The translations under genes and the position numbers were made by a program. The notes under the pieces are model-generated. The model worked only from the letters and a program-made list of their open reading frames with translations. It was not told the origin of the DNA and did no database searches. A DNA stretch of 64,000 bases from an uncultured virus (IMG/VR IMGVR_UViG_3300029928_000270) (lineage: Duplodnaviria; Heunggongvirae; Uroviricota; Caudoviricetes), in IMG/VR virus record IMGVR_UViG_3300029928_000270; one strand, given 5' to 3'. How positions within the stretch are numbered: position 1 is the first letter of the stretch; every line of letters starts with the position of its first letter. Shown here in pieces: positions 30,594 through 62,444 of this stretch.

Positions 30594-33500
30594 ATGAAAA
30601 AACTGAAGAAGTGTATTAAATCAGTAATATCATTTTCTCTTGCAGTAGTTATGCTTTTTAGTGGCATATCTCCATTAGGTATATTTGCGGCGAGTGCAAG
30701 TTCTTTTGGGGTATGGCAGACTGATGGCAATTTTACTGTAACAGAAAATGGTACGTATGTAATCTATGCAAAGGATGCAGTAGGCAATACTACGTCCATT
30801 GAGATTACTGTTAATAATATAGACTATACACCGCCCACCCTTGATGTTGGGTATTCTACTACTGAGTGGACTAAGGATGGTGTTAAGTTAGTACTTACTT
30901 CTGTAGACCAAGCAAGTCCGGGAGGTACAGCAGGTACTGTCAGTCTCAGTGTTGTAGGTTCAGATGGAACAAGCTATCCGACAGACCACTTATTCACCTT
31001 AAATACAAGTGGTACTGTAACATCTACTGATGATGTTGGTAACGCAGTTTCAAAACCTTTCAGTATAACGAATGTGGATACAGTAGTTCCGAGTATTTCA
31101 ATTTCAGCTGATATTACTTCTCCAACAAACGGAAATGTAACGCTTAAGATTAGTGGTTCTGATGCAGAGTCAGGATTAAATGCAAAACCGTATAGTTGGG
31201 ATGGAACAACATGGACAGATGTAGCAACCAAGACAGTTAGTGCAAATGGTGTGTATACAGGCTACATTAGAGATGCAGTTGGCAATATCTCATCCACCAC
31301 AATCTCGGTAGCCAATATAGATAAAGTAGCACCAACCATAAGTGGGTATTCTTACAGTACTGAGGCTCCTTGTAACACCTCAGTTGTAGTAACTGTAAAT
31401 GCAACAGATACAGGTTTAGGTCTTGCCGACTCTGCTTACAGTTTTAACGGTGGAGCATATGGCACTTCCAACAAGTTAACAGTTACTGCAAACGGTACTT
31501 ATACAGTTGCAGTTAAGGATAAGGCAGGAAACATTACAAACGGTTCATTCAAGTTAAGCAATCTTGATTTTGAAGCTCCAGTTATATCCTCTGTTGTCCC
31601 CAGTACCACTGCTGAAACGAATACGGACGTAACTCTTACGATAAATGCTACTGATAATGTAGGTGGTCTTGGTTTAGCAGACAAGGCTTACAGACTTCAG
31701 GGATATGAGAATTGGCAGACATCTAATGTTGTAACTGTAACATGTAACGGAACTTATACCGTAGAAGTAAAGGATGAGGCGGGAAACATTGCAAGTAAGT
31801 CAATTGAGATTACAAACATAGATAAGGAACCCCCTACCGCCAGTCATGTATTAAATATTACATCTCCTACGAATACAGATGTAGTTGCAACCTTAACGAT
31901 ACTCGATAATAAGGGTATTAAGAAAGTTGTTACTCCAGATGGTACTGTTGTTACTCAGGTTAGTTTCCAAAGCATAACAGATTATACATTCTCAAAGAAC
32001 GGTAGCTACACCTTTGAGATTTGGGATACTGCTGATAATAAGACAACTCATACTGTAGACATTTCCAATATCGATAAAGATAAACCAGTAATCGACAGTA
32101 TTGAAAGGAGTACTACTAAGGAATGTAATACTTATGTAGATATTACTGTTACTGCTCACGATGTAGGCTTGGGTCTTGAAGCTAAGGCTTTCAAGTTTAC
32201 AGGGGGGGATTGGCAGAGTGCAAACACATTTCGGGTATCTCAGAACGGTACTTATTCCGTAAGCGTAAGGGACGTTGCAGGCAACATAACAACTCAGGAG
32301 TTCTCAGTTCTTAACCTTGACTTTGATAAGCCAGTAATTAAAGCGATGACCTTAAGTACTACCTCTCAGACAAATAAGGATTTAACGTTAACTGTAACTG
32401 CTGAGGATATAGGCTTAGGTTTAGCTAAGAGTGCTTACCGTATCAATGGTAGTGCTTGGCAGGAGAGCAATGTATTTACTATCGCAGAGAATGGCACGTA
32501 TACAATAGAAGTAATTGATAAGGCAGGAAACATTCAAACTGGCACTAAGACGGTTACTAATATTGATAAGGTAGCTCCCAAGCTGAGTGCTACTGTAAAT
32601 ACCACTGAACCGACAAATCAGGATGTGGTAGTTACGTTAAAAGCTTCTGATGATGTTGAAATTTCCAAAGTTTTTGACGCAAACGGCGAGTCCATTAGCT
32701 TAACAAAGGTTTCAAACGAGTATACAGGCACAATTTCTGAGAGTGTAAATGGTACTTTCACATATAAAGCAGTTGATACGGCAGGCAACGAAACTACTTG
32801 CACAGTTAAGATTACAAATATTGATAAGTCCAATCCAGTAATTGATAGTATTGGTAGAAGCACAACAGTTCCTGTAAATACTCAGGTAGTTATTACAATC
32901 AATGCTCATGATGTAGGTCTTGGTTTAGCAGATAAGCCTTACAACTTCGATGGCACAGGTTGGGTATCTGATAAGACGAAAGTCATTACAGCTAACGGAA
33001 ACTATCGTATATCTGTAAAAGACGTTGCAGGAAACATCACTACGCAGACATATAATGTAATGAACTTAGACTTTGACGCTCCCAAAGTAAATGGGGTATC
33101 CTTAAGCACTACGAGTCCTACAAATAAGGATGTAGTTCTTACGATTGATGCAGAAGATGTAGGTCTTGGTTTAGCAGATAAGCCTTATAGACTCAAGAAT
33201 GGTACTTGGCAGACAAGTCCGAAGTTTACTGTTTCTCAGAATGGAACATATACATATGAGATAATTGATAAAGCTGGTAATATTGCTTCTGTATCAAAAG
33301 AAGTAACGAATATCGATAAAGTTGCACCTACAATAAGTGCTAAGGTAAATACGACAGACCCTACAAACAAGGATATTGAGGTAACCTTAACGGCAAGTGA
33401 TAATGTGGGTATTGCGAAGGTTGTAAATACCAGCGGTGAAGTACTCAATGGTACTGCAAGTAGTGGTAATGTGGTGTATACGACTTCCGAAGTTCAGAAC

Positions 33501-36500
33501 GGAACTTATACTTATACAGTTACTGATACTGCAGGAAATACCAGTTCAGCGACAGTTATACTTGGAAATATTGATAAGAGTAATCCAGTTCTTGATAAGA
33601 TTTTAAAGTCTACGGAAGACCCTACAAATACAAATGTAGTTGTGACAGTTACAGCGCATGATGTTGGTTTAGGTTTAGCAGACAAGCCTTACAAGTTTGA
33701 TAGTAATGATTGGACTGACGTATCTGCAATAACAATAACCAGTAATGGTACTTATACTGTTCAGATTAGAGATAAAGCTGGTAACGTTATCACTAAGAGC
33801 TATGAGGTAAGTAATTTAGATTTCATAGCACCTATAATAAGCTCGGCAAGAGTTCTTCAGACAAGACCAGTTAAGGAGTCAGCAAGAATTGCAGTTCAGG
33901 CTACTGACGAAGGTTTTGGATTAGCAGATAAGGCATACAAGTTGAATGACGGAGATTGGCAAACTGATAACTGGTTTGATGTGACAGACAATGGAACTTA
34001 CACGGTATATGTTTGTGATAAGGCAGGAAATATTACATCAACCACTGTAGAAGTAACAAATATAGACAGAGTTAAGCCCGAAATTACGTATACTGTTAGC
34101 ACAACAGAGCCTACACCTACTTTAAGTATTGAAGTAGTCGGTACAGATAACATGGAGTTAGGGGCAGTAACTTGCAGTGATAGTCGTGTGGTCAAGGGGA
34201 AAACAAACTGGGTATCTAAGACTGAGTGTAGGCAGATATTCCTTATAAATCAGAACGGTACTTACAGATTTGATATACGGGACTTTGTAGGAAATACAAA
34301 CTATGTTGAGGTTACAATAGACAATATAGATAATGTAGCACCTACGATAGATAAGATTATAAAGAACCCTAATGTACCTACAAATGCTCCTTTGGAGATA
34401 ACAATAATTGCAAGCGATGTTGGTTTTGGTCTTGCAGATGAACCTTACAGGGTGGATGGAAGTGCTTGGCAGTCCAGTAACAAGTTTATGATTGCAGATA
34501 ATGGTGTACATGAAATAGATGTTAGAGATAAAGCTGGCAATACTATAATGATGACTACAGATATCTCAAATCTTGATTACGACAACCCAGTTATTGACGA
34601 GGTTACACAGGATATTACAGAGCAGACAAACACTGATGTAGTTCTTACAGTTACTGCTCATGATGTAGGGTTAGGTCTTGCAAAGAAGCCATATAAGTTA
34701 GAAGACAGCTCTTGGGTATCCAGTAATAAGTTTACTGTCGAAGAGAACGGTGACTATGTAATAAGTGTTAGGGATGAGGCAGGTAATATTGAAACTTACA
34801 CTCATACAGTTAGCAACATTGATAAGGAGTTACCAGTAGCTTCTCATACGGTGGATATTGATACTCCTACAAACAGTGACGTAGTTATAACTTTAAAGGC
34901 TACAGATAATGTAGAAATTAAGAGTATTACTCTTCCAGACAAAGCTGTACAGAATATTGGAAGTAATGAAGCGACAATTCCATTCACTGTTGTTGAGAAT
35001 GGAACCTACACCTTTAAGGTACTTGACACTGCAGGGAATATTACTACTTATCCAGTTGAAATAGATAATATTGATAAAAATCCTGCTGAAATAGTTGCTT
35101 CTCCGAGTGTGGAAGGTTGGACAAATCAGAATATTGAGTTGAATGTAGTGGTAACTGACGATACTCTTGTAAGAAAGGTTCAATCTCAGGGTATTTGGTA
35201 TGACTTAGATGCAGGTGAATTACCTAATGGAGCAGTTGTTGAGAAAGGTGGTCAGGATAGAATACTTAAGGTTAAGTTTAGTATTCCAGTTTCAGATAAT
35301 GGAACTTTTGAATTTAAGGCTATTGACTTTGGTGGTTTAGAGACAACATACTCATATGAGGTAACGTACATTGATAGAGTAGACCCCGAAATCTTCGCAA
35401 AGGTTGTGAATAGTGACCTTACTAAGGATAATGTAGATATTGCAATAACTACAAGCGATGCCTACGGTGAAGTAAGTCGGATAGTATTGCCTGGAGATAA
35501 CAGAATTGATGGCTCAGAGACAACTTATATTGCTACTGATAATGGAGAGTACAAGTTCACAGTTATTGATAAAGCAGGCAACTCTGCTGAAGCAGTTGTA
35601 AAGGTAGGAAACATCGATAGAGTTGCTCCTACGTTCACTTATGAGTTAAGCCCAAATGAGGATAGTTGGTCTAATGACAGCGTATTGCTTAAGGTAATTG
35701 GCTCAGATGAGAATGGTATCTCAGCATACAAGTTGTTCTTTGGTGAAGAAGAAATCAAAGCACTTGAGGGTGGGGTATTCCAGTTGTTTGAGAATGGTAC
35801 TTACAGAATTGTAGTTGTAGATACTGTAGGTAACTATTCAGGAACCGAGATTACTGTAGGTAATATAGATAAGGACGAGCCCACGATAGCAGTTGGTCTT
35901 AAGAATAAGTATTGGGTAAACAAGTCAAATACCATTGTAATAACTGGTCAGGACAACGCCAGTGGGGTATCAGGCTATAGCTTAGACGGTGAGAATTGGC
36001 AGGAGTCAAATGAGTTCAAAGTAAGTTATAAGAATTCATATACAGTTTATGTTAAAGACCTTGCAGGTAACGTATCAAGCATGACAGTTTACTTTGACTT
36101 GGTAGAGGAGCCTATTGAAGATGTTGAACCTTTACTTGAGGAAGAGCCAAAGGACGAAGATGAAGATATTGTAGCTCCTAAGTCCGACTTAGATGATGGT
36201 AGCTTGATTGTAATCGGCGAGTTAACTGACTTACCTGTTGAAGCAACCGAAGCAGAAGCAACAGAAGGCGATGTACTAAAAGTAGTTCAAAAGATTGCGG
36301 AAAATGTTGTGGAAGTAGCTAAGGTTGTATTCCCTTATGCCGCAGTTCTGCTCTTAGCAACAGTTGGATGTTTAGTATTCATTCTGTTGACCGATGGTGT
36401 TAGGGTATATGGTAAGAACAAGAAGGGCAAGTGGCAGTACTTGGGTATTGCAAGATGCCATAAGGGAGTAGTTGGATGTACCGTTAAGGTAAAGAGAAGT

Positions 36501-36653
36501 GTACTTAAGAAAGTTGATAGTGCCGATTATCTGCTGAAGTTTAATACCAGATACAGTACAATCAATAAGGGACTTGAACTCTACATTAAGGTTGGCAATC
36601 AGGCTATAACCAGTAATGTGTATAAGCAGGTTGAGTTCTCTGTAATGAAGTAG
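30594..36653 (+). CDS. 2019-aa membrane-anchored Ig-like repeat surface protein ('stalk')
   Basis: Signal peptide ending FAASA; half repeat followed by 21 ~83-aa repeats (NIDK..P...NGTY...D.AGN); acidic linker; TM helix; basic C-terminal domain. Confidence 0.9.
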   Translation: MKKLKKCIKSVISFSLAVVMLFSGISPLGIFAASASSFGVWQTDGNFTVTENGTYVIYAKDAVGNTTSIEITVNNIDYTPPTLDVGYSTTEWTKDGVKLVLTSVDQASPGGTAGTVSLSVVGSDGTSYPTDHLFTLNTSGTVTSTDDVGNAVSKPFSITNVDTVVPSISISADITSPTNGNVTLKISGSDAESGLNAKPYSWDGTTWTDVATKTVSANGVYTGYIRDAVGNISSTTISVANIDKVAPTISGYSYSTEAPCNTSVVVTVNATDTGLGLADSAYSFNGGAYGTSNKLTVTANGTYTVAVKDKAGNITNGSFKLSNLDFEAPVISSVVPSTTAETNTDVTLTINATDNVGGLGLADKAYRLQGYENWQTSNVVTVTCNGTYTVEVKDEAGNIASKSIEITNIDKEPPTASHVLNITSPTNTDVVATLTILDNKGIKKVVTPDGTVVTQVSFQSITDYTFSKNGSYTFEIWDTADNKTTHTVDISNIDKDKPVIDSIERSTTKECNTYVDITVTAHDVGLGLEAKAFKFTGGDWQSANTFRVSQNGTYSVSVRDVAGNITTQEFSVLNLDFDKPVIKAMTLSTTSQTNKDLTLTVTAEDIGLGLAKSAYRINGSAWQESNVFTIAENGTYTIEVIDKAGNIQTGTKTVTNIDKVAPKLSATVNTTEPTNQDVVVTLKASDDVEISKVFDANGESISLTKVSNEYTGTISESVNGTFTYKAVDTAGNETTCTVKITNIDKSNPVIDSIGRSTTVPVNTQVVITINAHDVGLGLADKPYNFDGTGWVSDKTKVITANGNYRISVKDVAGNITTQTYNVMNLDFDAPKVNGVSLSTTSPTNKDVVLTIDAEDVGLGLADKPYRLKNGTWQTSPKFTVSQNGTYTYEIIDKAGNIASVSKEVTNIDKVAPTISAKVNTTDPTNKDIEVTLTASDNVGIAKVVNTSGEVLNGTASSGNVVYTTSEVQNGTYTYTVTDTAGNTSSATVILGNIDKSNPVLDKILKSTEDPTNTNVVVTVTAHDVGLGLADKPYKFDSNDWTDVSAITITSNGTYTVQIRDKAGNVITKSYEVSNLDFIAPIISSARVLQTRPVKESARIAVQATDEGFGLADKAYKLNDGDWQTDNWFDVTDNGTYTVYVCDKAGNITSTTVEVTNIDRVKPEITYTVSTTEPTPTLSIEVVGTDNMELGAVTCSDSRVVKGKTNWVSKTECRQIFLINQNGTYRFDIRDFVGNTNYVEVTIDNIDNVAPTIDKIIKNPNVPTNAPLEITIIASDVGFGLADEPYRVDGSAWQSSNKFMIADNGVHEIDVRDKAGNTIMMTTDISNLDYDNPVIDEVTQDITEQTNTDVVLTVTAHDVGLGLAKKPYKLEDSSWVSSNKFTVEENGDYVISVRDEAGNIETYTHTVSNIDKELPVASHTVDIDTPTNSDVVITLKATDNVEIKSITLPDKAVQNIGSNEATIPFTVVENGTYTFKVLDTAGNITTYPVEIDNIDKNPAEIVASPSVEGWTNQNIELNVVVTDDTLVRKVQSQGIWYDLDAGELPNGAVVEKGGQDRILKVKFSIPVSDNGTFEFKAIDFGGLETTYSYEVTYIDRVDPEIFAKVVNSDLTKDNVDIAITTSDAYGEVSRIVLPGDNRIDGSETTYIATDNGEYKFTVIDKAGNSAEAVVKVGNIDRVAPTFTYELSPNEDSWSNDSVLLKVIGSDENGISAYKLFFGEEEIKALEGGVFQLFENGTYRIVVVDTVGNYSGTEITVGNIDKDEPTIAVGLKNKYWVNKSNTIVITGQDNASGVSGYSLDGENWQESNEFKVSYKNSYTVYVKDLAGNVSSMTVYFDLVEEPIEDVEPLLEEEPKDEDEDIVAPKSDLDDGSLIVIGELTDLPVEATEAEATEGDVLKVVQKIAENVVEVAKVVFPYAAVLLLATVGCLVFILLTDGVRVYGKNKKGKWQYLGIARCHKGVVGCTVKVKRSVLKKVDSADYLLKFNTRYSTINKGLELYIKVGNQAITSNVYKQVEFSVMK

Positions 36654-36667: not shown

Positions 36668-36695
36668 AAAGGCTACTCATTAGTGGGTAGCCTTT
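36668..36695 (+). terminator. Terminator-like hairpin
   Basis: AAAGGCTACTCA-ttag-TGGGTAGCCTTT. Confidence 0.75.
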
Positions 36696-36753
36696 GTTAG
36701 TTAGTAGAGTAGATATAAAATTAAAAGCAAATTCTTTTTGGAGGTGTGTAGTT

Positions 36754-37341
36754 TTGAGAAAAACGTGTTATAACGTGTTTCTTGTGGTAGAAACGATTTG
36801 TAATCTGAAGTTGCTTGCAGTTGTGTCTTTTTTCATGTGTGTGGCTTCAACAGTTTGCGCTTATAATGCTGATATGGCGGAAAAGCTGGGAGCCTACTTG
36901 ATTAGAGCGGACAGTCCTCTGAGAACTGTACTTTATGTGGTCTTAGTTGTAAGTCTGCTTGCAACCACATTCAAGATGTTGATAAACGAAACAAATAAGG
37001 GCATTGGAGTAGGTTTTATAAAAGCCTTACTGCCAGGTGCTATTGGTTTTGTTGAGTTAGTATTTTTACAGGACTTAGTCAATTTCTTAATCTCTAAGTT
37101 TTCTGTCACTGACTCATATAGTTCTCTTTTAGTCTACTATCTTGTAGCTTTTTGGGCAGTTTTAATTGTCAGTATTGTAAAGTCAGTTATTGGTTCAAAT
37201 GCAGGTTTCAACGAAATCACCCAGTTAACTGGAAGTAATGATGTAGCTTTGAAATATTTTGATGGTATCCTTTCTGATGTGGATTTTGAAGCATGTGATA
37301 TCATCGCATTAAGATATGAAGGAGAGGAAAATAATGAGTAG
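36754..37341 (+). CDS. Multi-pass membrane protein
   Basis: About four hydrophobic segments; GGAGGTG RBS before TTG 36754. Confidence 0.7.
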   Translation: MRKTCYNVFLVVETICNLKLLAVVSFFMCVASTVCAYNADMAEKLGAYLIRADSPLRTVLYVVLVVSLLATTFKMLINETNKGIGVGFIKALLPGAIGFVELVFLQDLVNFLISKFSVTDSYSSLLVYYLVAFWAVLIVSIVKSVIGSNAGFNEITQLTGSNDVALKYFDGILSDVDFEACDIIALRYEGEENNE

Positions 37342-37975
37342 ATTGACGGATTTGAAGGTGTTAGCAAAAGGGTATATGGCTCAGAAGAAGGAAATCAAAG
37401 AGAAAGATGAGGAACTTCGTTCTTTGCAGACAACTAAGGACTTGGTTACAGATTTATCAGTGCAGGGAGCAGCATCAGGTACTGATATTCAGCTTTTCAT
37501 TGCAAGAGCACAGGATAAGATGCAGATAATGAACGACTCTCTTGCATCCTCCGAGGCAGAAAAAAATGCTTTACAGAGGTCTATGGCACGTATCAGTGTT
37601 GATTTAAGTAATGCTCAGGCAGCTAATGCAAACCTTGTAGAGGAGAACACAAAGCTGAGGGAATTGGTTGCCCAGTCTAAGGGCGATATGTATGAAATGC
37701 TTCACAATGAGAGCAAGGACAACCTCAAGGAGTTAGCTGATTTACGTTCAGAGAACGTTACTCTTAAAGCAGATACAGCTACAATGCAGAGAGAGTTGGC
37801 TGATGCCAAGAAAATTGCGGAACAGGTTCCTGCTTTACAGGCGGAGTTAGACAAGCTCCACAAAGAGTTAGACGATACAAGGGCTGAAAACAGACGTATT
37901 GCTAAGGAGTTAAAGGTATTTCAGGCTCAGAAAACAACTTCTGTTGCAGATGATGGAGACATACTTCTGGGGTAG
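37334..37975 (+). CDS. Coiled-coil protein
   Basis: Heptad-rich A/L/E/K/Q sequence throughout. Confidence 0.75.
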   Translation: MSRLTDLKVLAKGYMAQKKEIKEKDEELRSLQTTKDLVTDLSVQGAASGTDIQLFIARAQDKMQIMNDSLASSEAEKNALQRSMARISVDLSNAQAANANLVEENTKLRELVAQSKGDMYEMLHNESKDNLKELADLRSENVTLKADTATMQRELADAKKIAEQVPALQAELDKLHKELDDTRAENRRIAKELKVFQAQKTTSVADDGDILLG

Positions 37976-37984
37976 GAGGTTTCT

Positions 37985-38380
37985 ATGCGAGAGTTTTGGC
38001 TCGTAAGCACGATGTGGGTAGTTACGGTATGTACTTTTATATCGTACTTCCCTCAGTTGCTTAAAATGTTTAGAACTAAGAAGATTGAGGATTTATCGTA
38101 CGGCAGTTGGATTTTATGGTCTGTAGGTGCTATTGCTAACTTAGTATATTCAATTCTTCTTGGTAGGTTGGAGTTGATAGTTTCAAGTGCGTGTGAAGCA
38201 TTTCTGATACTTGCGACTCTTGTAATGATGCTCTATTACACCTATATAAATGATTATTATCTTGAGTCAGAAGAGAAATTTAATGAGGAGTTAAGTGATG
38301 TAAGTAGCAGTAATTTACCTTTGGTAGAGGATGGAGAAAGACGTAAGTTAAATAGAGCAAAGAGTAAGTTCTTCAAGTAG
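37985..38380 (+). CDS. PQ-loop (SemiSWEET-like) membrane protein
   Basis: SYFPQLLKMFRTKKIEDLS followed by TM helices; terminator hairpin at ~38384-38423. Confidence 0.8.
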   Translation: MREFWLVSTMWVVTVCTFISYFPQLLKMFRTKKIEDLSYGSWILWSVGAIANLVYSILLGRLELIVSSACEAFLILATLVMMLYYTYINDYYLESEEKFNEELSDVSSSNLPLVEDGERRKLNRAKSKFFK

Positions 38381-38505
38381 TCAAAGGTCGCTTGGTGGGG
38401 ATTGATACCGAGCGACTTTTCTTTTATGTTGAAGTTAGTAAATGCAAACGGGTATGCGGTTAAGTTAAAAGTAATTATTTGAAAAATTTAGGGGAGGTGT
38501 GCGCA

Positions 38506-39099
38506 ATGTTTTATATAAACTATGCAGATAATAACCTTTTAGGTGTTGTAGACACAAAAGATTTAGTTGAGGAACGCTACACTTATGCACAGGTAGAGGC
38601 TTTCACGAAGAATGGTATTCAGATATTTACTCAGGACATTCAGATGCATATGCTTAACTTAGCTTATGCTTACCATAATCTTATAGATGCTCTCGGCACT
38701 AAAGACAATGCAATAATAAGTTCAGCTTTGGATTATGCCGAGGGTGGAAATGCAAAGTTAAGTAAGGTAACACTTATCAGGATTGAAGCACCTCTTAAGT
38801 TGTATGTTTCCTGCATATTAGGTGTAAGAAAAGCTTACGGGTATTATGATTTTGGATACAGAAGTTTAAATTCAAAGATGCTTAAGTGGTTCAAATACTT
38901 GAAAGCTTCTATCTTGCAGTGTTATAGTGTTGATTGGTCTGATGATAATAACACTTATACACGTCCAGATGGACAGTTTGGAAACTCTCAGTATGACGAA
39001 TTGTCTAAAATACTGGACAAGAAAATTGATGTTTTCTGCAAGGAGTTTAAGATGCAGAAACGTATCGTGAACGAGTGGGTAAAAACACATATGCAGTAA
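38506..39099 (+). CDS. DTxD-module family protein (tandem array, copy 1)
   Basis: MFYINY...GVVDTKDLVEERY...YAEG...FGYRS. Confidence 0.8.
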   Translation: MFYINYADNNLLGVVDTKDLVEERYTYAQVEAFTKNGIQIFTQDIQMHMLNLAYAYHNLIDALGTKDNAIISSALDYAEGGNAKLSKVTLIRIEAPLKLYVSCILGVRKAYGYYDFGYRSLNSKMLKWFKYLKASILQCYSVDWSDDNNTYTRPDGQFGNSQYDELSKILDKKIDVFCKEFKMQKRIVNEWVKTHMQ

Positions 39100-39113
39100 T
39101 GGGGGTATTTGCT

Positions 39114-39725
39114 ATGTTCTATATAAATTATTGTGATTGGGTAGGCGCAGGTGTTGTAGACACGGCGGATTTAGTAGAAGAGTATCATACTTATGATGAT
39201 ATAAGTGATTATGAGAATAGAGGATTTATAATATTACCTCAGGAGGCTCAGACTTATTTGTTTTGGCACATGCGTTACTATTTAGAATTAATGTATGGTT
39301 TACGAGATAAGGGTAAGTCAGAAATATCAGCAGTCTTAGCGTATGCTGAGGGGAGGTCAAAAGATATAAGTAAACTTGAAATGGGGTTTCTCAGTACTCA
39401 TTATGTAAAAAATTATTCTGAGATGGTGACTGAGATAAGAACAAGATTTAAATATCCCAGCTTTGGGTATCGTAGTATAAAGAAGCTTACCTATAAGTTT
39501 TTTAGTAAGTTAATGGAAGTTGCAAAATCTAAGAGTGATATCGATTGGTTTGATGAAGATGATACTTATGAGAGGGAAGATGGTCATCTTGGAAGTTATG
39601 CATGGGATAAAATTTTTGATGACTTAGACAAGCTTGGAGATGATTTTTGTGAGAAATTCAGGTTTCAGAAAGACTTGTTAGATGAGTGGCTTGTATTTGC
39701 ATACGATTTAGACTCAGCATGCTAA
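39114..39725 (+). CDS. DTxD-module family protein (tandem array, copy 2)
   Basis: MFYINY...GVVDTADLVEEY...YAEG...FGYRS. Confidence 0.8.
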   Translation: MFYINYCDWVGAGVVDTADLVEEYHTYDDISDYENRGFIILPQEAQTYLFWHMRYYLELMYGLRDKGKSEISAVLAYAEGRSKDISKLEMGFLSTHYVKNYSEMVTEIRTRFKYPSFGYRSIKKLTYKFFSKLMEVAKSKSDIDWFDEDDTYEREDGHLGSYAWDKIFDDLDKLGDDFCEKFRFQKDLLDEWLVFAYDLDSAC

Positions 39726-39740
39726 ATGGAGGTATTTACT

Positions 39741-40337
39741 ATGTTTTATGTAAACTATCGGGATGATAAAGTTTCCAGTGTTGTAGATACAAAAGATTTA
39801 GTTGAAGAGTATTATACAAATGCCCAGATAGAGGAATTTCGTAAAGCAGGTATAACAATATTAACACAAGAAGACCAAATGGGTATGTTTGAGATTGCAA
39901 AGTATTATTTGCGTCTGATAGATAGTATTAAATCTAAGGATAAGAAAGTAATATCTGATATCGTAACCTATGCAGAGGGGCATATTAACATGGAAGATGC
40001 CATGCATTTATCTGAAGTGGAAGACTTTAGAGCAATCTTGGGGTTTAATAGTGTACTGTGGCAATGTAGAGAGGTAGTAGGAGATAATACCATAAGTCAT
40101 AAGGATATAAATAGAGAGTTGCTTAAAAATATTAGACGTTTGATGAATTTGATTAGGGAATTTACTGAACCGATGAATACATGGGGATATCTAAGTACAA
40201 ATGAGTGTAATCATTTTGTAAAGAAATTGCGTAGATATGAGGAGTCTATGTGTCAGTCCTGTAAGTTACAGTTTGACTATTTATCAGATTGGGCAATTTT
40301 GTCGTTCATGATAATGTTTCCAGTATTTGATGATTAA
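39741..40337 (+). CDS. DTxD-module family protein (tandem array, copy 3)
   Basis: MFYVNY...VVDTKDLVEEYY...YAEG. Confidence 0.8.
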   Translation: MFYVNYRDDKVSSVVDTKDLVEEYYTNAQIEEFRKAGITILTQEDQMGMFEIAKYYLRLIDSIKSKDKKVISDIVTYAEGHINMEDAMHLSEVEDFRAILGFNSVLWQCREVVGDNTISHKDINRELLKNIRRLMNLIREFTEPMNTWGYLSTNECNHFVKKLRRYEESMCQSCKLQFDYLSDWAILSFMIMFPVFDD

Positions 40338-40361
40338 TAAGTGTTGAGAGGAGCGTTTCTT

Positions 40362-40985
40362 GTGTTCTATATAAATTATGTAAAAGGTGACAATATTGGT
40401 GTTGTAGATACCACAGATATGGTTGAGGAAGTATATACCTATAAGCAGGTAGAGTCTTTTGTGAAGCGGAATATTACAATTCTCCCACAGGGTGCACAGT
40501 ATTACTTCCTTGATTTCATGAGTAAGTATTTTGATTTGGTAGGCATCTTGGGTACTTCTAATGAGAGTGTTATAAAACCAGTTTTAGACTTTGCAGAGGG
40601 AAGAGTTAAAGTTTTGCCTGAGTCATTTCGTGGTTGCAATAAGGAAGCAATAAACTCTTATCATGTAGCGGTTAACTATATAAGAAACGTTTACTGGTAC
40701 AGCGGCTTTGGGTATAAGAGCATAAACCCTATGGTGTATAAGCGGTTCAAGGAATTGTCAGATATTACAAATGAAATCTACAACATTAACTGGAAAGATG
40801 AGTCCTGCACTTACAGCCTGCCAGATGGTTCAGTTGGAAATACTCAATATGATGCTTATGTAGAGAAGCTGGATAAGGCAGTGGACGCTTTTTGTAGGGA
40901 CTGCAAATTTAACCGTAAGATGGTTAATAAGTGGATAAGTAAGTCAACAATAAATCTTGAGGATATAAAGATTTATAGAAGTTAG
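40362..40985 (+). CDS. DTxD-module family protein (tandem array, copy 4)
   Basis: GTG start; FYINY...GVVDTTDMVEEVY...FAEG...FGYKS. Confidence 0.8.
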   Translation: MFYINYVKGDNIGVVDTTDMVEEVYTYKQVESFVKRNITILPQGAQYYFLDFMSKYFDLVGILGTSNESVIKPVLDFAEGRVKVLPESFRGCNKEAINSYHVAVNYIRNVYWYSGFGYKSINPMVYKRFKELSDITNEIYNINWKDESCTYSLPDGSVGNTQYDAYVEKLDKAVDAFCRDCKFNRKMVNKWISKSTINLEDIKIYRS

Positions 40986-41857: not shown

Positions 41858-42042
41858 GGCTTAATACACCTCAGCTACAAGAGGTCTGTTATAAGCGACA
41901 AGGCTTGGCAGATAGAACTTCAGAGTGTATCGATGCAAACAAACTTTGCGACAGGTATAGTTCGGCTTAGGGTCTATTAATGATAGATGGGTAAGTTAGA
42001 ACACCGTCGAAAGGGAGACACGGTATCCACAAGTATTAAGCC
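41858..42042 (+). ncRNA. Unidentified multibranch structured RNA (domain A)
   Basis: Perfect 10-bp closing stem GGCTTAATAC/GTATTAAGCC enclosing about five hairpins. Confidence 0.6.
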
Positions 42043-42048
42043 ACTTTT

Positions 42049-42136
42049 GCAGTAGTACTCAAGTGGTTGAAGAGGCTCCCCTGCTAAGGGAGTAGTTCGT
42101 TAAATCGAAGCGTGAGTTCAAATCTCACCTACTGCG
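42049..42136 (+). tRNA. tRNA-Ser(GCT)
   Basis: GCAGTAG/CTACTGC acceptor, CTCCC-CTGCTAA-GGGAG anticodon arm, long variable arm, G73; CCA not encoded. Confidence 0.95.
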
Positions 42137-42169
42137 CTCCCCGATAGGGTATTTAATAAAGTTTTTTTT

Positions 42170-42259
42170 GGTGTAGTACTCAAGTGGCTTAAGAGAGCGG
42201 TCTTGAAAACCGTTAGTCCGATGTGAGTCGGAGCGTGGGTTCAAATCCTACCTACACCG
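42170..42259 (+). tRNA. tRNA-Ser(TGA)
   Basis: GGTGTAG/CTACACC acceptor, GCGGT-CTTGAAA-ACCGT, long variable arm, G73; CCA not encoded. Confidence 0.95.
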
Positions 42260-42281
42260 TTCTGCAGTAGCTCCATTGCAG

Positions 42282-42566
42282 ATTATAGTGTGAATGTGGC
42301 GGAGTTCTGCCACAGTATGAGGTTCTACGGTTGGGAGGTGTCGCTCCCATAGTCGTAGGAAAGGGCTACGATGGGCGGTGTCGCATCCATCGAACCTCAG
42401 ACAGAATGGACAAATGCAGTGTTCCACCCATCACAGATTGTAGTTGGGTTCTTATCAGAGCAAGGAATGATGAATTCCCTAAAATGTTGCATTTAGGAGA
42501 GAACAGACCCATATATGTTCCTCTGAATTTTGAAGTATGGAGTCAGTCACGGCAGAGATGCCGTGC
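42282..42566 (+). ncRNA. Unidentified structured RNA (domain B) with twin GUGUCG-loop hairpins
   Basis: Nested stems ATTATAGTGTGA/TCACAGATTGTAGT, TGTGGCGGA/TCTGCCACA, TGAGGTTC/GAACCTCA, TGGGTT/GACCCA, CACGGCA-GAGA-TGCCGTG. Confidence 0.6.
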
Positions 42567-47849: not shown

Positions 47850-48641
47850 ATGAAGGCAAGAAAGATGTTAGTTGCATTGGGTTTGTCAGTAGTTTTGTTT
47901 TTAACTGGAAGTAATTTTACTGTTAATGCCGCCAGTAATGAAGTTGGTTCTGTAAGTATCACTCATGCCCATGTGAGTGATGCAACTAATGGGGGGGGTT
48001 GCTATATCACTCCGCACATTGTTAGTTACGGTACTAAGAATGTGAACGTAACTTGTGGTGGTTCGTATGGCGGTGGTACTGCAACGGGTGGTACTATTGG
48101 CGGTAAACCAACCTACACTTATACGTGTACAAGATGTGGTAATGTATGGACAGGTTGGGCAGAGTCAAAGCCCTCTAACTGCGATAAGGTAACTGGTACA
48201 AGAAAGGTTTGTAAGAAGTGTGGTAGTAGTTCTTGTAACGGTGACCATCAGGAAGGCTACGATTTAGCATGTGGCATGACTGATGGTCAGGTTCTTGGAA
48301 CTTATACCTTAGTTAAGCAGGACGGTAAGGACTATACATTGTCAGTTGTAACTGATACTGGAAGTTTAGAAGTAAAATCCTATAAGTGGAATGATGGTTC
48401 GACTGGCAGTTCTTATGCAGTAAAGTCAGACGGCTCTTACTCTTGTGTGGTAACAGTCAACGATGGGTATGCAGACCGCATAGGAACATTAAGTTATACA
48501 GTTACGGATTACGATAAGGAACCACCAGTTATAGGTTCTGTAACTTATAATAAGGATAGAACGAAAAATCCAGTTGATATTGTTGTAGTTGCAACAGATG
48601 AAATTTCAGGTGTAGCAGGATACATGATAGAGAAGAAATAA
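47850..48641 (+). CDS. Secreted Cys/His-rich protein with one Ig-like domain and a C-terminal half domain ('tip 1')
   Basis: GGAGG RBS, signal peptide, HAH...GGCY...CG, ends DYDKEPPVI...ATDEISGVAGYMIEKK; the track start 47493 lies inside tRNA-Pro. Confidence 0.85.
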   Translation: MKARKMLVALGLSVVLFLTGSNFTVNAASNEVGSVSITHAHVSDATNGGGCYITPHIVSYGTKNVNVTCGGSYGGGTATGGTIGGKPTYTYTCTRCGNVWTGWAESKPSNCDKVTGTRKVCKKCGSSSCNGDHQEGYDLACGMTDGQVLGTYTLVKQDGKDYTLSVVTDTGSLEVKSYKWNDGSTGSSYAVKSDGSYSCVVTVNDGYADRIGTLSYTVTDYDKEPPVIGSVTYNKDRTKNPVDIVVVATDEISGVAGYMIEKK

Positions 48642-55599: not shown

Positions 55600-55984
55600 G
55601 ATAGATGTTAATTACTGTGGCAGACATATTCTGTTGGAGTTTACCGATAACATGACAGTCGTCAGTGAAAATTCGGGAGTTGGCAAAACAAGGTTATGAG
55701 AGTTGTTACATGATTTAGTTTTGGATTTTACTTACTTAAGTATGCTAAGTTGGAGAAATAAGAACGATGATATTTTGAAGTTATTAAGGTTATCAAGTGG
55801 TAAGCTGTTTGTTATAGATAATGCTGATGTAATATTAGGTACTGAAGAAAGAGGGTATATTGCTTTTGATGGCTCAAATCAGTATCTTTTGTTTGGGAGA
55901 AATCCCTAAAATCTAATGTTAACTTATAATAATTTGAGAGAAATTGTATTGGGTTCTGATTCTGTAAAGTTTGAGGAGGTATAA
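55571..55984 (+). pseudogene. Decayed small P-loop ATPase
   Basis: One frame: ...ENSGVGKTRL*(TGA 55697)ELLH...FVIDNAD...LFGRNP*(TAA 55907)NLML...EEV*. Confidence 0.7.
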
Positions 55985-55985
55985 A

Positions 55986-56723
55986 ATGAATGATATAGGG
56001 TTCAATCAGAATTTATTTCAAGCTTTAATGATAGAGAAAGCAAACAACATCAAGAGTGGTATTTGGGGTTTCACTCAGAGAGAATTTGCGTATAACTCAA
56101 CTTTTCTTCATGCAAGTAGCGGTTTTACCTTTGATAATGTCACCCATTTATTTGATACTGGAACTATTAAGAGTAGTAGAGATTTAAGTGTAAAGGACAT
56201 TCAGGAAGTAATGGGTCACTTTGTTATGTTTGACACCATGTTAGATTTTTTGTATGTGCCTTTAGATTTAGACATGATTAAGTTCACGCACAAAAGCCTT
56301 AAACAGGGTGTTTACGATGACATATCAAAGCATTATGCAATAGGCAATTATAAGACAAAGAAAAACTTTTCATTTCGTGGTATTGAAGTTGCAATGCCAA
56401 ATGAAGTACCTTTGAGAATGGAAAAACTCATGTCAGATTACTGGTACTATGTAAAGACCTTGAGAAGTATCGCAGCTTTTCATGTTGAGTTCGAGAGAAT
56501 ACATCCTTTTCAGGACGGAAATGGTCGTGTAGGTAGGATGATTATGTTCAGGGAGTGTCTTACACACGGTGTAACACCATTTATCATTAGACGTGCAAAT
56601 GCAAAGGAGTATATAGATGATTTAATACTGGCTCAGACTGGTAATATAGAGCCACTTATCGGGTATTTTATGAAAGAGCAGAAGTGGTACGCTAATAAAG
56701 TGAGTGAGATTTTGGTAATGTAG
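55986..56723 (+). CDS. Fic family protein (intact catalytic motif, inhibitory Glu absent)
   Basis: HPFQDGNGRVGR; AYNSTFLHAS where the paralogue has AFNSNKIEGS. Confidence 0.9.
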   Translation: MNDIGFNQNLFQALMIEKANNIKSGIWGFTQREFAYNSTFLHASSGFTFDNVTHLFDTGTIKSSRDLSVKDIQEVMGHFVMFDTMLDFLYVPLDLDMIKFTHKSLKQGVYDDISKHYAIGNYKTKKNFSFRGIEVAMPNEVPLRMEKLMSDYWYYVKTLRSIAAFHVEFERIHPFQDGNGRVGRMIMFRECLTHGVTPFIIRRANAKEYIDDLILAQTGNIEPLIGYFMKEQKWYANKVSEILVM

Positions 56724-58325: not shown

Positions 58326-58439
58326 ATGAAAGCAGTTTTAACTTTTGATAATTCAGATAGGAATGTAATTCTAAGGTCTATGGTAAACTATTTTAATAAA
58401 GATAGGAGGTGTCCTTATGTTCAATCAGAGATTAGTTAA
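58326..58439 (+). pseudogene. Truncated paralogue of 56806
   Basis: MKAVLTFDNSDRNVIL versus MRAVLNFNNSDKSISL, then diverges and stops at 37 aa. Confidence 0.55.
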
Positions 58440-59133
58440 TACATTTGCGTATGAGAGAGCACATGGTATTCGCTCAGGGGTTTACGGATTAACTCAGAGA
58501 GAATTTGCTTTTAATTCAAACAAAATAGAGGGTAGCAGATTAACCAAAGAGCATACATCCAGTCTGTTCAATACTGGTAGTATATATGTTGACGGTGAGT
58601 TTCGTGCAAAAGACATTGAGGAGGCTACTGGTCACTTTGCGATGTTTAATGTCATGTTAGATACTTTGAACAGTATTTTGAGTGAGGATTTAATTAAGTT
58701 ATTTCACAGGAGTTTGAAACAAGGGGTATTTGAAGATATTGCAAACGGGTATGCAATAGGAGATTATAAGACGAGAAGAAACTTCGTAGGCGATATTGAT
58801 ACCGCATTACCAAGCGAAGTGCCTGAGAGAATGTCAAAACTTCTATCTCAATATTGGACATGTGAAAAGTCCTTAAAAAATCTTGCCATATTTCATGCAG
58901 AGTACGAAAAGATACATCCTTTTCAGGATGGTAATGGAAGAACAGGACGAATGATTCTTTTTAGGGAATGTCTTGTGAATAATATAACACCTTTTATTGT
59001 TCGAGATGTTAACAAAGCAAGATATATTAATGCGTTAATAAAAGCACAGAATGGTGATACAACTACCTTATTAGAGTATTTTTCAGAGGAGCAGTCATGG
59101 TATTCAGAAAAGGTGGAGGGTAGCCTTATTTAG
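58417..59133 (+). CDS. Fic family protein with N-terminal inhibitory motif
   Basis: HPFQDGNGRTGR and SNKIEG; terminator at ~59147-59176. Confidence 0.92.
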   Translation: MFNQRLVNTFAYERAHGIRSGVYGLTQREFAFNSNKIEGSRLTKEHTSSLFNTGSIYVDGEFRAKDIEEATGHFAMFNVMLDTLNSILSEDLIKLFHRSLKQGVFEDIANGYAIGDYKTRRNFVGDIDTALPSEVPERMSKLLSQYWTCEKSLKNLAIFHAEYEKIHPFQDGNGRTGRMILFRECLVNNITPFIVRDVNKARYINALIKAQNGDTTTLLEYFSEEQSWYSEKVEGSLI

Positions 59134-59263: not shown

Positions 59264-61723
59264 ATGTCAAAGAAAAGACTAAATTTCATAAGGTACTTTG
59301 TTCTATCTTTAGTTCTCACGGCATCTATGCTTTGTATTCCGAAAATAGATGCAAAAGCTGCGATAGACATCAAAGCCTATGTGAGTGGTGACGATGTAGG
59401 TGGCGCAGGCGGTTCTTATGCGGAGGGTATTAGTGCGAGAAAGTCAGGCTACATGGTATACGTAGTCGACCAAAACGGCAACAGGGTATCTCCCGATGCT
59501 AAGTTGGTATCATCAACTGATTACGGTTTCAGTCGAGGAGACAAGGTAGATTGGAGTGCCAGTGCAAGGCTTGGTGGGTATTCAGTAACGAGTTCTACAC
59601 CAGTTATCAAAAATGCACCTTGGGGTGCACCAATGAAGGACGGGTTTAACACTCGAGAAGCAGAGATTAAGGCTTGGATGGCATCAGACACATTAAAGAG
59701 TGGTATTTCAAATGCATCAACAATAATATTAGACTATTGGGGTACCTCAGTTGCCGAAGCATGGGTCAAGAACAACTACTATTTAATCTTAGAACCCATT
59801 TACGAGTATCGTATGTGGTACAAGTACAAGATAACCATTGTAGCCTTTGGTGAGGTTGCAACTGGTACTTTTAGTTCGAGGTCAGGCGCACCAGTTTTAG
59901 TAGGAAATACTCCAGGTCTTGCACAGATGTCAAGTGACTTCCTTAGTGACTTAGAGGCTACAACACTTAAACCGACAACAGGAGTTATAGTTGTTCGTGA
60001 ACCCATGAGAGGTTTTCTAAACTCAGCCATGAGCAGTGGATATGCAAAAGCATTCCCAAGAATGGAGTATTTAACTAAGACAATCGGAAGTGTAGCCCCA
60101 GGTTCGGCAGGTTCAAGCTATCTCACGTTATCTCAAATCAAGTCAGCAGGTTGGGGTATGATGGCTTTATCTGCGAGTGATTTAGGCGAGGTTTCCGAAG
60201 TTGACCCGATAACCCCCGATACCCCCGACCCCTCGGGTTATGACGGAACGGTTTACACCTTATCTGCAACTGGAGGTTCCACGAGTGACAGTGACAGGGT
60301 TGGGGCGACCACGTATTTTGGCACAGGTGCGTATGGTTGCCTTAGTGGTAGTTTTTATGCGGAGAACTGTGCGAGTGGTACGGATGCCTACAATTTGGCG
60401 GAGAGTATGTCCAGTGGCATGTCATACGAAGGGGATGTACCGCAGGTTGTATTCTCAGGCACCAGTTATGATTTAAGTGTGGAAAGCTCTTTGGGTATTG
60501 TAGCAGGTATGCTTACTGTAGACCCATCCACATTTCCATACGTGGATATTCATTCATCCTCAACTAAGGAAGATTATGAAAGTTATCTCAGTTCCATAAA
60601 ATCAGGTTTATACCCCACCATTGACAGGTTATACAATAACGGTTCGAAGGGTACTTCCACCTACGACAGTAGAACCATGGATTGTGGGGATATACTCGGG
60701 GGTACCGAGTGTTCAAAAACTTATTGTGGTAATATCTCAATCACTCTCACACATGAAAATAGTAATCCAGATACAGCTATAGGTTGGGAAGTTGATAATC
60801 CCGGAAGAGTAGGTGACTCAAGAGGTGTTATTAACATGACAGTTTCCTACCCATCTGAATTGAGAACGGATTTTGGCAAGGTATTATATAATGCCAACAG
60901 CTTGAGTACGGAGTTATATGCAAGTTCTCTGTTAACCCTAAGGCATACGGAGTTATGGAGTGCATATAAAAAGTCAATCGTAGAGTATGTATCTCATCTT
61001 CAGAAAGACGGCACTTTGCAGAAGATTTGGACGGAGGAAGTAAACAAGGCTATTGTAAGTTATGAGAATGATGCCATGAATAAGGCATACCTTGCGTATA
61101 AGAAAACAAATCCCGAGCCAGTTGCGCCTACTACTGTGTATAAGCCATACGGTATGTCAGATGAGGAATGGTTAGCTTCTGAGACATATTTAACCTATAA
61201 AAGAGCGTATGAAGCATGGCAGACAGCACACGATGAGTGGCAGTCAGCCGTTAATGCAGTAAAGAAAGCGGCAAAGGAAAAGGCAAATCGTGAGTATATG
61301 GAAACAAAGTATGATAAGTTTACCTATTTATTTAGCTCAGGTCGTGGGTATAGCGGAAGTACGGTTAGGGTATCTCAGCAAGATTGGAAGTTTAAGTTTT
61401 ACTGGTGTACACCGATAATGCAGAAAACCTACGCAGTTGACGATAAAATCCCCATCAATGACGGACCGAGTCGCAGTTCAAGAAGTCCACTTTTCAGTCA
61501 GGCTTATAAGGTATCATTCAAGTATTCCATGGAGAATAGGAGTGACCTGTCAGACAGTGTATTAAAGCGCATGATAACCTATTTACCCTTAGTAGGTGGT
61601 GAAGTAAGCAAGACCCCTTATGTTGGGGTATCAGCAGGGGATGTTCAGTACTATATATTTGGTAAAAAGATTGAGGGGACTGATTTCTTATTGCCAGATG
61701 CAACTTCGATGGATATGAGATAA
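59264..61723 (+). CDS. 819-aa secreted protein
   Basis: Signal peptide ending IDAKA; GYMVYVVD; Ser/Thr/Gly-rich middle; helical Ala/Lys segment; 19 bp upstream of tip gene 2. Confidence 0.8.
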   Translation: MSKKRLNFIRYFVLSLVLTASMLCIPKIDAKAAIDIKAYVSGDDVGGAGGSYAEGISARKSGYMVYVVDQNGNRVSPDAKLVSSTDYGFSRGDKVDWSASARLGGYSVTSSTPVIKNAPWGAPMKDGFNTREAEIKAWMASDTLKSGISNASTIILDYWGTSVAEAWVKNNYYLILEPIYEYRMWYKYKITIVAFGEVATGTFSSRSGAPVLVGNTPGLAQMSSDFLSDLEATTLKPTTGVIVVREPMRGFLNSAMSSGYAKAFPRMEYLTKTIGSVAPGSAGSSYLTLSQIKSAGWGMMALSASDLGEVSEVDPITPDTPDPSGYDGTVYTLSATGGSTSDSDRVGATTYFGTGAYGCLSGSFYAENCASGTDAYNLAESMSSGMSYEGDVPQVVFSGTSYDLSVESSLGIVAGMLTVDPSTFPYVDIHSSSTKEDYESYLSSIKSGLYPTIDRLYNNGSKGTSTYDSRTMDCGDILGGTECSKTYCGNISITLTHENSNPDTAIGWEVDNPGRVGDSRGVINMTVSYPSELRTDFGKVLYNANSLSTELYASSLLTLRHTELWSAYKKSIVEYVSHLQKDGTLQKIWTEEVNKAIVSYENDAMNKAYLAYKKTNPEPVAPTTVYKPYGMSDEEWLASETYLTYKRAYEAWQTAHDEWQSAVNAVKKAAKEKANREYMETKYDKFTYLFSSGRGYSGSTVRVSQQDWKFKFYWCTPIMQKTYAVDDKIPINDGPSRSSRSPLFSQAYKVSFKYSMENRSDLSDSVLKRMITYLPLVGGEVSKTPYVGVSAGDVQYYIFGKKIEGTDFLLPDATSMDMR

Positions 61724-61742: not shown

Positions 61743-62444
61743 ATGAAGAGGGTAGTGAGTTTAGTATCAATGATTTTGATGTCCGTTGTTTTAAGTGTAG
61801 TAGTCCCTCGGATGATTTCTGAAGCATCTGAGGGAAGTAACACTTTAGCAGAGGTAGAAATTGGTCACAATCATGCAGGAAGTTCTGCAAGTAGGGGTGG
61901 TTGTTATCAGGTTTGGTCTGACGGTTGTGGTCAGACTCTGACACCACAGGGAGTTGACTGGAATGCAAGTTCAGATGGAACTTGGGGATTATATACTTGT
62001 CCTGCAGGACATAGACAAACGAGAAGTGTAGTTAATGCATATGGATTGCATTGCCAGGTAGGTTGTGGGTATAGAGTAAATTGCGGTTTAAGTGAAGGTC
62101 AGACAATAGCAACATTCAGCATCGAAGAGCAGAGTGGGTATGTACTAAACCCAGTTTTGAATGTTGTTAAGGGTTCTGTAAAGGCAGTCAGTTTTACTTG
62201 GCAGGACGGAAGTGTTGGTGCTTTAACTGTCAGTTCAAATGGCATTTACACATGTACATTAACATATACGGATAATGGTGTAGTCAGGGTTGCAACCTTA
62301 TCTTGTGAGGTTACAGATTATGATACTGAGCCACCAGTAATAGAGGGTGTCACTGGGTATGAGAGTAGGGAGAAGTATCACACTATTGCAGTTAGTGCAA
62401 CGGATAACTATGGAGTTACTGGTTACATGATAGAGAAGAAATAA
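61743..62444 (+). CDS. Secreted Cys/His-rich protein with one Ig-like domain and a C-terminal half domain ('tip 2')
   Basis: Signal peptide, HNH...GGCY...CG, ends DYDTEPPVI...ATDNYGVTGYMIEKK; paralogue of 47850; terminator at ~62475-62512. Confidence 0.85.
   Translation: MKRVVSLVSMILMSVVLSVVVPRMISEASEGSNTLAEVEIGHNHAGSSASRGGCYQVWSDGCGQTLTPQGVDWNASSDGTWGLYTCPAGHRQTRSVVNAYGLHCQVGCGYRVNCGLSEGQTIATFSIEEQSGYVLNPVLNVVKGSVKAVSFTWQDGSVGALTVSSNGIYTCTLTYTDNGVVRVATLSCEVTDYDTEPPVIEGVTGYESREKYHTIAVSATDNYGVTGYMIEKK

Follow-up and report, generated by a model that had tools for sequence, protein, structure and literature searches.

Tip and stalk proteins of a large phage-like element: a candidate FN3/Ig-like domain split between separate genes

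In a stretch of 64,000 nucleotides from the IMG/VR record IMGVR_UViG_3300029928_000270 (hereafter the window), which is assigned to an uncultured virus, three genes were found to encode one giant repeat protein, the "stalk", and two shorter proteins with Cys-rich heads, the "tips". The mature stalk opens with the second half (H2) of a fibronectin type III (FN3)/Ig-like β-sandwich domain, and both tips end with the first half (H1) of the same kind of domain. The best reading of this arrangement, to which we assign a probability of about 60%, is that a tip's H1 and the stalk's H2 complement each other non-covalently. An earlier note on this DNA, made from the sequence alone, had proposed such a docking; its interpretation is partly supported, and all of its comparative predictions that were tested came out in favour.

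According to this model, stalk and tips would be two parts of one modular surface adhesin, with the gene being split inside a β-sandwich domain. Judging from their signal sequences, all of these proteins would be exported by the Sec route, the tips being secreted separately. The stalk would be a type I membrane protein, with its C-terminal helix in the membrane and a positive-inside tail in the cytoplasm, and the bare half-domain consisting of strands E-F-G would be exposed at the distal stalk end, tens of nanometres from the membrane on 21 rigid repeats. Outside the cell, strands A-B-C of a tip and E-F-G of the stalk would fold into one FN3/Ig-like sandwich with a common hydrophobic core, strand B pairing with E and strand C with F across the tip-stalk joint, and the head would thereby be fixed non-covalently. 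Two or more tip genes, combining hypervariable heads with a near-invariant H1, could in this way supply alternative heads for one stalk.

Architecture of the Stalk and the Tips

All three genes are present in the sequence at the positions, and with the features, which had been described before. Their parts are listed below (all on the + strand), together with the basis of each assignment; HMM stands for hidden Markov model, RBS for ribosome-binding site and AF2 for AlphaFold2.

30594..36653, +: stalk gene, 2019 aa (translation, repeat alignment, repeat HMM, RBS and stop)
30594..30698, +: stalk signal peptide, residues 1-35 (hydropathy peak at residues 4-18+19)
30699..30824, +: orphan H2, residues 36-77, strands E-F-G, mature membrane-distal N-terminus (repeat-profile match)
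30816..36107, +: 21 complete β-sandwich repeats of ~84 aa, NID to NID (alignment, HMM, PDB profiles, AF2)
36318..36392, +: predicted transmembrane helix of the stalk, residues ~1909-1933 (Kyte-Doolittle window mean up to 2.5; Lys-rich segment next)
36393..36650, +: conserved, predicted cytoplasmic C-terminal domain of ~86 aa (48-50/86 identical in the relatives P0028 and P0031)
47850..48641, +: tip 1 gene, 263 aa, ending in ATDEISGVAGYMIEKK before the stop (translation, HMM, RBS)
48507..48638, +: H1 of tip 1, last 44 aa, strands A-B-C (repeat-profile positions 3-34, E 1.8e-4)
61743..62444, +: tip 2 gene, 233 aa, with an unrelated Cys-rich head, ending in ATDNYGVTGYMIEKK before the stop (translation, RBS, AF2)
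62313..62441, +: H1 of tip 2, residues 191-233 (hhalign to repeat columns 2-40)

The stalk is composed of the signal peptide, the orphan half-domain H2, 21 FN3/Ig-like repeats delimited by N-[ILV]-D motifs, an acidic linker, the transmembrane helix and the cytoplasmic domain; its cytoplasmic tail is Lys-rich and β-rich and has no match in Pfam. Signal peptides, transmembrane helix and topology were judged by sequence inspection and Kyte-Doolittle hydropathy only, and cleavage of the stalk is predicted at A-S-A / S. A profile HMM built from the 21 repeats gave 22 matches in the stalk, the first of which is partial: stalk residues ~39-73, directly behind the signal peptide, correspond to profile positions 49-83 of 84. 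As this first match covers those positions only, the mature stalk does start with a second repeat half, in agreement with the earlier note.

Repeat 1 (30816-31079), which adjoins H2, is atypical in carrying a DQASPGGTAGT insert; compared with P0028 and P0031, it is the best-conserved part of the protein (60-64/85 identical residues, versus ~50% elsewhere), and it may contact the docked tip. P0028 and P0031 are 50-58% identical relatives of the stalk, in which 26/42 residues of H2 are identical, compared with 40-42/42 among the close stalks. Close stalk homologues range from 1770 to 3015 aa and contain 19-34 repeat HMM matches; a ~90% identical relative in sequencing run X6 lacks 780 stalk bases (32846-33627), i.e., about three repeats, which fits this variable repeat number.

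Both tips are built in the order signal peptide, HxH..GGCY Cys-rich head, PKD-like domain (~78 aa) and H1. That they stop after a first half-repeat follows for tip 1 from the HMM match listed above and for tip 2 from hhalign, by which repeat columns 2-40 are placed on tip columns 194-231 (probability 59%, E 9.3e-5). Stalk and tips each have their own GGAGG-type RBS 7-9 nt 5' of the ATG, their own signal peptide as judged by hydropathy, and a clean TAA or TAG stop, just as had been described. For tip 1, position 47850 is likely the true start, because the long open reading frame (ORF) from 47493 overlaps tRNA-Pro (47477-47551). No H2-like continuation was found 3' of the genes in any frame, and a six-frame HMM scan of the window returned exactly two tips and one stalk, and no others.

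The two tips have the HxH..GGCY frame in common and differ in the Cys-rich segment, as previously remarked, with identities between tip 2 and tip 1 of 20/83 in the head, 29/78 in the PKD-like domain and 27/43 in H1. The designation of the middle domain is based on the AF2 model of tip 2, for which the top Foldseek matches are PKD domains (E 0.011-0.03, TM (target) 0.55-0.58); in Pfam, this domain has no PKD match and only a weak one to Invasin_D3 (22 bits, below its cut-off). For the head, no family or fold match was obtained in Pfam, Foldseek or the ESM Atlas, where the scores of 0.79-0.86 are leads at most. Relatives often show a duplicated head motif H-x-H...G-x-C-Y, behind which lie CxxC-rich stretches that differ greatly in length. 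Metal binding by the head would be a guess.

The Repeat Unit as a Complete Domain

Against all PDB chains, positions 6-84 of the repeat profile align with 8cxj_D (surface protein R28; E 1.1e-3) and with residues 3-84 of 88 of 1k85_A (the FnIII domain of chitinase A1; E 3.6e-3). The E-values of these matches are modest, and their coverage runs from end to end of single domains. In the AF2 model of stalk residues 36-325, calculated from an alignment of 18 paralogous windows of the stalk itself (AF2 alignments in this work were shallow or paralogous), each NID-to-NID unit is drawn with six strands in the order A, B, C, E, F, G; the mean predicted local distance difference test score (pLDDT) is 88.7, with ~85-97 for the repeat units. 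Foldseek relates the model to the extender arrays of the giant adhesins SiiE, GhpA, MpIBP and Lap (E 3e-7 to 5e-5). The Pfam family BiPBP_C scores 86 bits for the whole stalk (cut-off 26.8), with no single stretch passing alone.

Profiles and model thus agree that the NID-to-NID unit is the structural domain, and therefore both genes break between strands C and E; the halves recognised in the earlier note are true half-domains rather than products of a misplaced boundary. Proteins of the FN3/Ig repeat family are characterised by every domain being complete in one polypeptide, whereas the sequence of this stalk enters the profile at position 49 of 84, and that of the tips leaves it at about position 40-45. 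In the FN3/Ig sandwich topology, strand B pairs with E and strand C with F; hence, H1 and H2 would interleave in both sheets.

Relatives Encoded by a Single ORF

A search with stalk residues 1-330 yielded 646 proteins. Among the best 120 of these 646, which were examined, P0022, P0033, P0041 and P0056 combine a signal peptide and an HxH..GCY Cys-rich head with subsequent repeats. Homologues with tip and stalk in one ORF, whose existence the earlier note had suggested checking, are thereby available, and in P0022 and P0056 tip and stalk sequences are collinear and abut inside one repeat, as is evident from the BLASTP ranges:

P0022: tip 1 residues 3-260 match 5-303; tip 2 residues 38-231 match 57-304; stalk residues 41-164 match 308-432
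P0056: tip 2 residues 104-230 match 150-282; stalk residues 41-162 match 287-411

P0136 and P0215 are further single-ORF members of the head family. Stalk residues 1901-2019 (transmembrane helix and tail, 119 aa) match the C-termini of single-ORF head-bearing proteins, including P0205, P0217, P0215 and P0234 (BLASTP E 8e-9 to 6e-3). Together, the C-terminal and the collinear matches imply that tip plus stalk reproduce a whole single-chain architecture from head to cytoplasmic tail. Like the two-gene system, the single-ORF family (P0022, P0056, P0033, P0041, P0136, P0215 and others) is composed of signal peptide, HxH..GCY head, repeats, transmembrane helix and tail; unlike it, everything resides in one polypeptide, with a continuous junction repeat that lacks an Arg residue specific to the tips (see below). 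The fused forms share ~30% identity with the tips across the aligned range; at such a distance, a recent accident in this lineage does not account for the split.

A Constant Break Point and a Conserved H1

Close relatives of tip 1 (seven proteins, 74-100% identical, among nine matches) all end at the same place, four of them with GYMIEKK and the others with GYVIEKK, GYMIERK and GYMIVPRE; P0137 and P0161, which are 36-38% identical to tip 1, were counted with the distant family. In the group of eight close tip 2 relatives, query included, six end with GYMIEKK and one with GYKIEKKQ. A tip profile search of 1.84 billion cluster representatives gave 308 matches at E <= 1e-3 and 114 at E <= 1e-10, the best 150 of which were examined. 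Among the 150 listed, 25 head-bearing proteins (clusters at 50% identity) as well as five N-terminally truncated fragments end 0-3 residues past the profile end, and many other listed matches are single-ORF forms running into further repeats or other domains. All aligned short tips (26/26; 23-49% identical to tip 2) end 3-7 residues beyond a shared aromatic residue of strand C. Variable break points, which would have spoken for decay, were thus not encountered across a diverse family; the recurrence of the break point exceeds chance and is a family trait.

H1 is conserved far more strongly than the remainder of the tips. Between tip 2 and P0007-P0010, 38-41/43 residues of H1 are identical (88-95%), compared with 20-23/83 of the head (~25%) and 31-35/78 of the PKD-like domain. 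The H1 positions shared by tip 1 and tip 2 lie in strands A, B and C, where every second, core-facing residue is kept. At the DNA level, the H1 segments of the two tips have diverged, except for the last 20 nt, which are identical; therefore, the similarity of the H1 proteins reflects selection and not recent copying or gene conversion.

Folding of the Separate Halves and Alternative Explanations

In the AF2 model of tip 2, built on an 8-sequence alignment, H1 (residues 191-233) is drawn as three strands with a pLDDT of 35-56, while the PKD-like domain (~120-190) reaches 85-95 and an N-terminal strand (33-41) about 80; the head has a low pLDDT, as expected from its shallow, variable alignment. 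No strand is drawn in the stalk model for the E-strand region, which makes up the first 17 residues of H2 (pLDDT 67 and 79), and the orphan F-G hairpin forms with a pLDDT of about 79-87. By these models, neither H1 nor H2 looks autonomous, which fits incomplete domains.

Several points weigh against complementation. The orphan F-G hairpin, with its fairly high pLDDT, may pack on repeat 1, and the nearly invariant H1 alignment may partly explain the low pLDDT of H1. H1 of tip 2 alone falls below the threshold of the plain repeat HMM. Stalks beginning with signal peptide and H2 were seen in one lineage only (P0001, P0011-P0020, P0028 and P0031; 13 of the scanned proteins). The tip 2 relative P0006 diverges and stops earlier, inside strand A. 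Five head-bearing proteins of 282-334 aa (P0133, P0137, P0138, P0145, P0147) end ~52-61 residues later than the other tips, after the whole junction domain plus an A-strand-like "IDKxxPxV..." segment; they were left uncounted either way, because their contigs of 1-6.5 kb may be cut by assembly. Finally, a conserved Arg in the A-B loop of tip H1 is absent from the stalk repeats and from the fused P0022 and P0056; this marks H1 as a specialised module, possibly with a different binding partner.

The first of these points would fit a fission without reassembly, in which an ancestral gene was split, the tips are free secreted proteins, the stalk is a headless fibre, and H1 and H2 are leftovers packing on their neighbours; that the repeat on which the hairpin could pack is both atypical and the one best conserved between lineages is in line with this. 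However, the leftover H1 would then be the most conserved part of the tips, with its core-facing alternation retained, and its end point would be fixed in every aligned short tip, although a useless tail is expected to vary or vanish. Moreover, H1 is of low confidence in the tip model and is not docked there as a confident extension of its neighbour. We consider fission without reassembly an unlikely explanation.

The tip-specific Arg leads to a different alternative, namely that H1 docks on another partner—a protein of 819 aa encoded near tip 2, a host wall component, or a second H1 with oligomerisation as the result—and that the H2 of the stalk is uninvolved. Tip 2 lies directly behind the gene of this secreted 819-aa protein, which is without a family match. 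Yet no frame of the window contains a further half-domain by the repeat HMM, fused homologues run from H1 straight into H2, and tips and H2-first stalks share contigs, as deduced from identical longest-contig sizes. A partner other than the stalk is, hence, rather improbable, and docking of H1 on H2 is retained as the preferred reading.

Co-Occurrence of Tips and Stalks

The co-occurrence of tips and stalks was judged from longest contigs of identical size in the respective clusters, with the following pairs:

Tip P0003 and stalk P0001: both longest contig 191266
Tip P0007 and stalk P0011: both longest contig 193375
Tip P0004 and stalk P0020: both longest contig 180770
Tip P0282 and stalk P0017: both longest contig 156210
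Tip P0285 and stalk P0016: both longest contig 192798

In the third pair, P0004 is the only tip with a Met-to-Lys exchange in strand C (GYKIEKKQ), and P0020 is the only stalk with an Ala-to-Thr exchange in strand F (VIYTKD), besides a Ser-to-Pro exchange at its mature N-terminus. This is possibly a single compensatory pair, of anecdotal value.

The presence of several variable tips beside one stalk, together with the identical last 20 nt of both tip genes, might also be taken to mean that recombination (shufflon or cassette switching) joins the tips, as DNA cassettes, to the stalk gene, giving a fused protein in some cells. Against this, the three genes lie on the same strand, each with its own RBS, signal peptide and stop; the tips are located downstream of the stalk; there are no repeats linking tip 3' ends to the stalk 5' end; and a join would put the stalk signal peptide inside the protein. 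In ~90% identical relatives from four runs of four studies, the stalk 5' end and tip 1 stay separate stretches, and no tip-to-stalk joint was found in the contigs of these runs, although contigs drop rare variants and cannot exclude rare rearrangements. Cassette switching is, accordingly, highly improbable, and complementation of separately encoded halves is favoured over it.

For the tips, no tblastn match was found in the phage collection and no match in the plasmid collection, and no relative was confirmed in the viral contig or genome contig collections; the tip family alignment A4 gave one weak match (E 8e-9) in 399 Clostridia genomes, with 0/4 in the initial four. A scan of JGI metagenomes with the stalk alignment returned 42 loci, including a stalk identical at 100% (L082) and an 822-aa protein in which head and repeats are fused (L087), but no new split tips among these 42 loci.

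A second, single-strand split class was considered, comprising the five late-ending proteins named above and P0021, a stalk-like protein whose mature end seems to lack strand A only. It was set aside, since the 1-6.5 kb contigs may end there.

The Element and Neighbouring Genes

The window has a GC content of ~0.35-0.43, and its + strand holds nearly all long ORFs. It encodes a replication module comprising an SNF2-type helicase, two topoisomerase II subunits and a DnaB-like helicase, along with an NAD-ligase, an exonuclease, a guanylate kinase and HNH endonucleases; this module is of a kind known from large phages. Furthermore, SmpB, a tmRNA, five tRNA genes, two Fic/DOC proteins and a PQ-loop protein are encoded. 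Virion or conjugation genes were not seen within the window. The stalk and tip protein clusters derive from contigs of ~137-198 kb. The element, which measures ~191 kb in all, is termed large phage-like; it may be a phage or a plasmid. Contigs from pig-gut, bovine-gut and faeces metagenomes, in runs belonging to four studies, contain relatives of ~90% identity. In the sequencing runs matching the element, its shares are all <=0.11, and no RNA run is among them.

Directly 3' of the stalk (36694-40985), seven ORFs are located, six of which (203-219 aa) have no Pfam or PHROG match; the seventh encodes the PQ-loop protein of 131 aa. Two tRNA-Ser, tRNA-Met, tRNA-Pro, the tmRNA (tag ANKRLVAVAA) and SmpB are found at 42049-43019, 45209-45694, 45858-46222 and 47477-47551; at 42930-43019, ARAGORN additionally reports an unusual tRNA whose anticodon has four bases (attt). 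The region 42009-43230 has a very high depth in other runs, as expected from shared tRNA sequence.

An R2K-type ATP-grasp gene comes after tip 1, and near tip 2 there are two Fic/DOC genes and one gene whose product has an RNase H1 N-terminal domain (coordinates of the ATP-grasp, Fic/DOC and RNase H1 N-terminal genes: 48695-49480, 55971-56723, 58417-59133, 62583-63230). The 819-aa protein (59264-61723) ends 20 nt upstream of tip 2 and has an N-terminal signal-like sequence; no match was found in Pfam or PHROGs, and it is a possible extra component or alternative partner of the tips. Downstream of tip 2, one further feature was recorded:

62473..62510, +: terminator-like hairpin 3' of tip 2 (17-nt arms, 94% complementary)

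Relation to Known Systems

The bond between tip and stalk would be non-covalent, because both halves are free of Cys, LPxTG is missing, and the scanned ORFs include no match to a sortase, chaperone or usher. Specifically, the expression [LIVS]Px[TAS]G is absent from stalk and tips, sortase has no match among the scanned ORFs, chaperone and usher genes have no Pfam or PHROG match among them (a few short ORFs being left out), and WxL or DUF916 have no Pfam match in tips or stalk at E <= 0.01.

Completion of a β-sandwich in trans is a known principle; the case proposed here differs in the fold family, the three-strand size of the donated part, the lack of accessory genes and the membrane-anchored repeat stalk as the acceptor. 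In chaperone-usher pilus subunits, only the last (G) strand is missing and one donor strand is received. In the stalk-tip system, in contrast, the break lies between strands C and E, with three strands on each side. The likeness to pilus donor-strand complementation drawn in the earlier note, consequently, holds for the principle only, given that three strands instead of one would be supplied and that no chaperone or usher was found. Pili donate one strand to a six-stranded subunit and need chaperone and usher or a sortase; their acceptor is a polymer, whereas here it is a predicted membrane-anchored repeat stalk.

What chaperone-usher and WxL (Elr) pili share with the proposed assembly is an incomplete β-sandwich completed by the strand(s) of another polypeptide, as described for WxL in a recent report on these Gram-positive pili (bioRxiv 10.64898/2026.10.17.759780). 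In the account given there, tip adhesins combine an invariant attachment module with variable payloads, and the Elr-type system is characterised by a WxL attachment domain, a DUF916/DUF3324 chaperone and an LPxTG base.

The closest topological precedent is engineered: an FN3 monobody divided within its CD loop (residues 4-45 plus 46-98) is described to reassemble and to regain its function on mixing, this cut being the most efficient split found earlier (PMC11666773, citing Dutta et al. 2005). As far as that description goes, a sandwich of ~90 aa is cut after strand C into an ABC and a C-terminal fragment, which is the same topological cut as in the tips and the stalk. The engineered pieces are man-made and derived from one gene; here, in contrast, the halves are natural, encoded by unlinked genes with separate signal peptides, and one of them carries variable payloads.

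The giant adhesins SiiE, MpIBP, Lap and GhpA likewise display a tandem array of Ig-like extenders with the head at the distal end. They are, however, single polypeptides, mostly with Gram-negative secretion, whereas in the stalk-tip system head and stalk come from different genes, and the stalk combines a Sec-type signal peptide with a predicted C-terminal transmembrane anchor and a cytoplasmic domain. Going by the resemblance to adhesin extenders, one might guess that adhesion of the infected or carrier cell is served. The "split domains" of RTX adhesins, as the term is used in the accounts of PMC10865825 and PMC12077191, are insertions within one chain and not two genes. In the literature searched, a limited library, no description of a natural Ig/FN3 domain split between two genes was found. 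The full proposal—a natural two-gene split FN3/Ig docking of a near-invariant three-strand H1 on hypervariable secreted Cys-rich heads with a three-strand stub on a giant stalk, dispensing with chaperone, sortase and covalent bond—appears evenly poised between right and wrong.

Biological Significance

If this reading is true, half a domain would be supplied in trans between the products of unlinked genes, with no chaperone found, representing a new form of fold complementation. It raises the question of whether a bare half-sandwich can survive secretion and await its partner outside the cell. For protein engineers, H1 and H2 would constitute a naturally optimised split-FN3 pair, similar to tag-and-catcher systems.

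For the element itself, complementation would explain how different heads can be presented on one long stalk, why the heads evolve fast, and why the last ~43 residues of the tips are fixed. It would constitute a surface-remodelling device of large phage-like elements in animal-gut bacteria, by which exchangeable heads are displayed on the infected cell. Given that the tip family is wide (25 clusters among the 150 matches listed), this way of assembling surface proteins from modules would be both general and so far undescribed.

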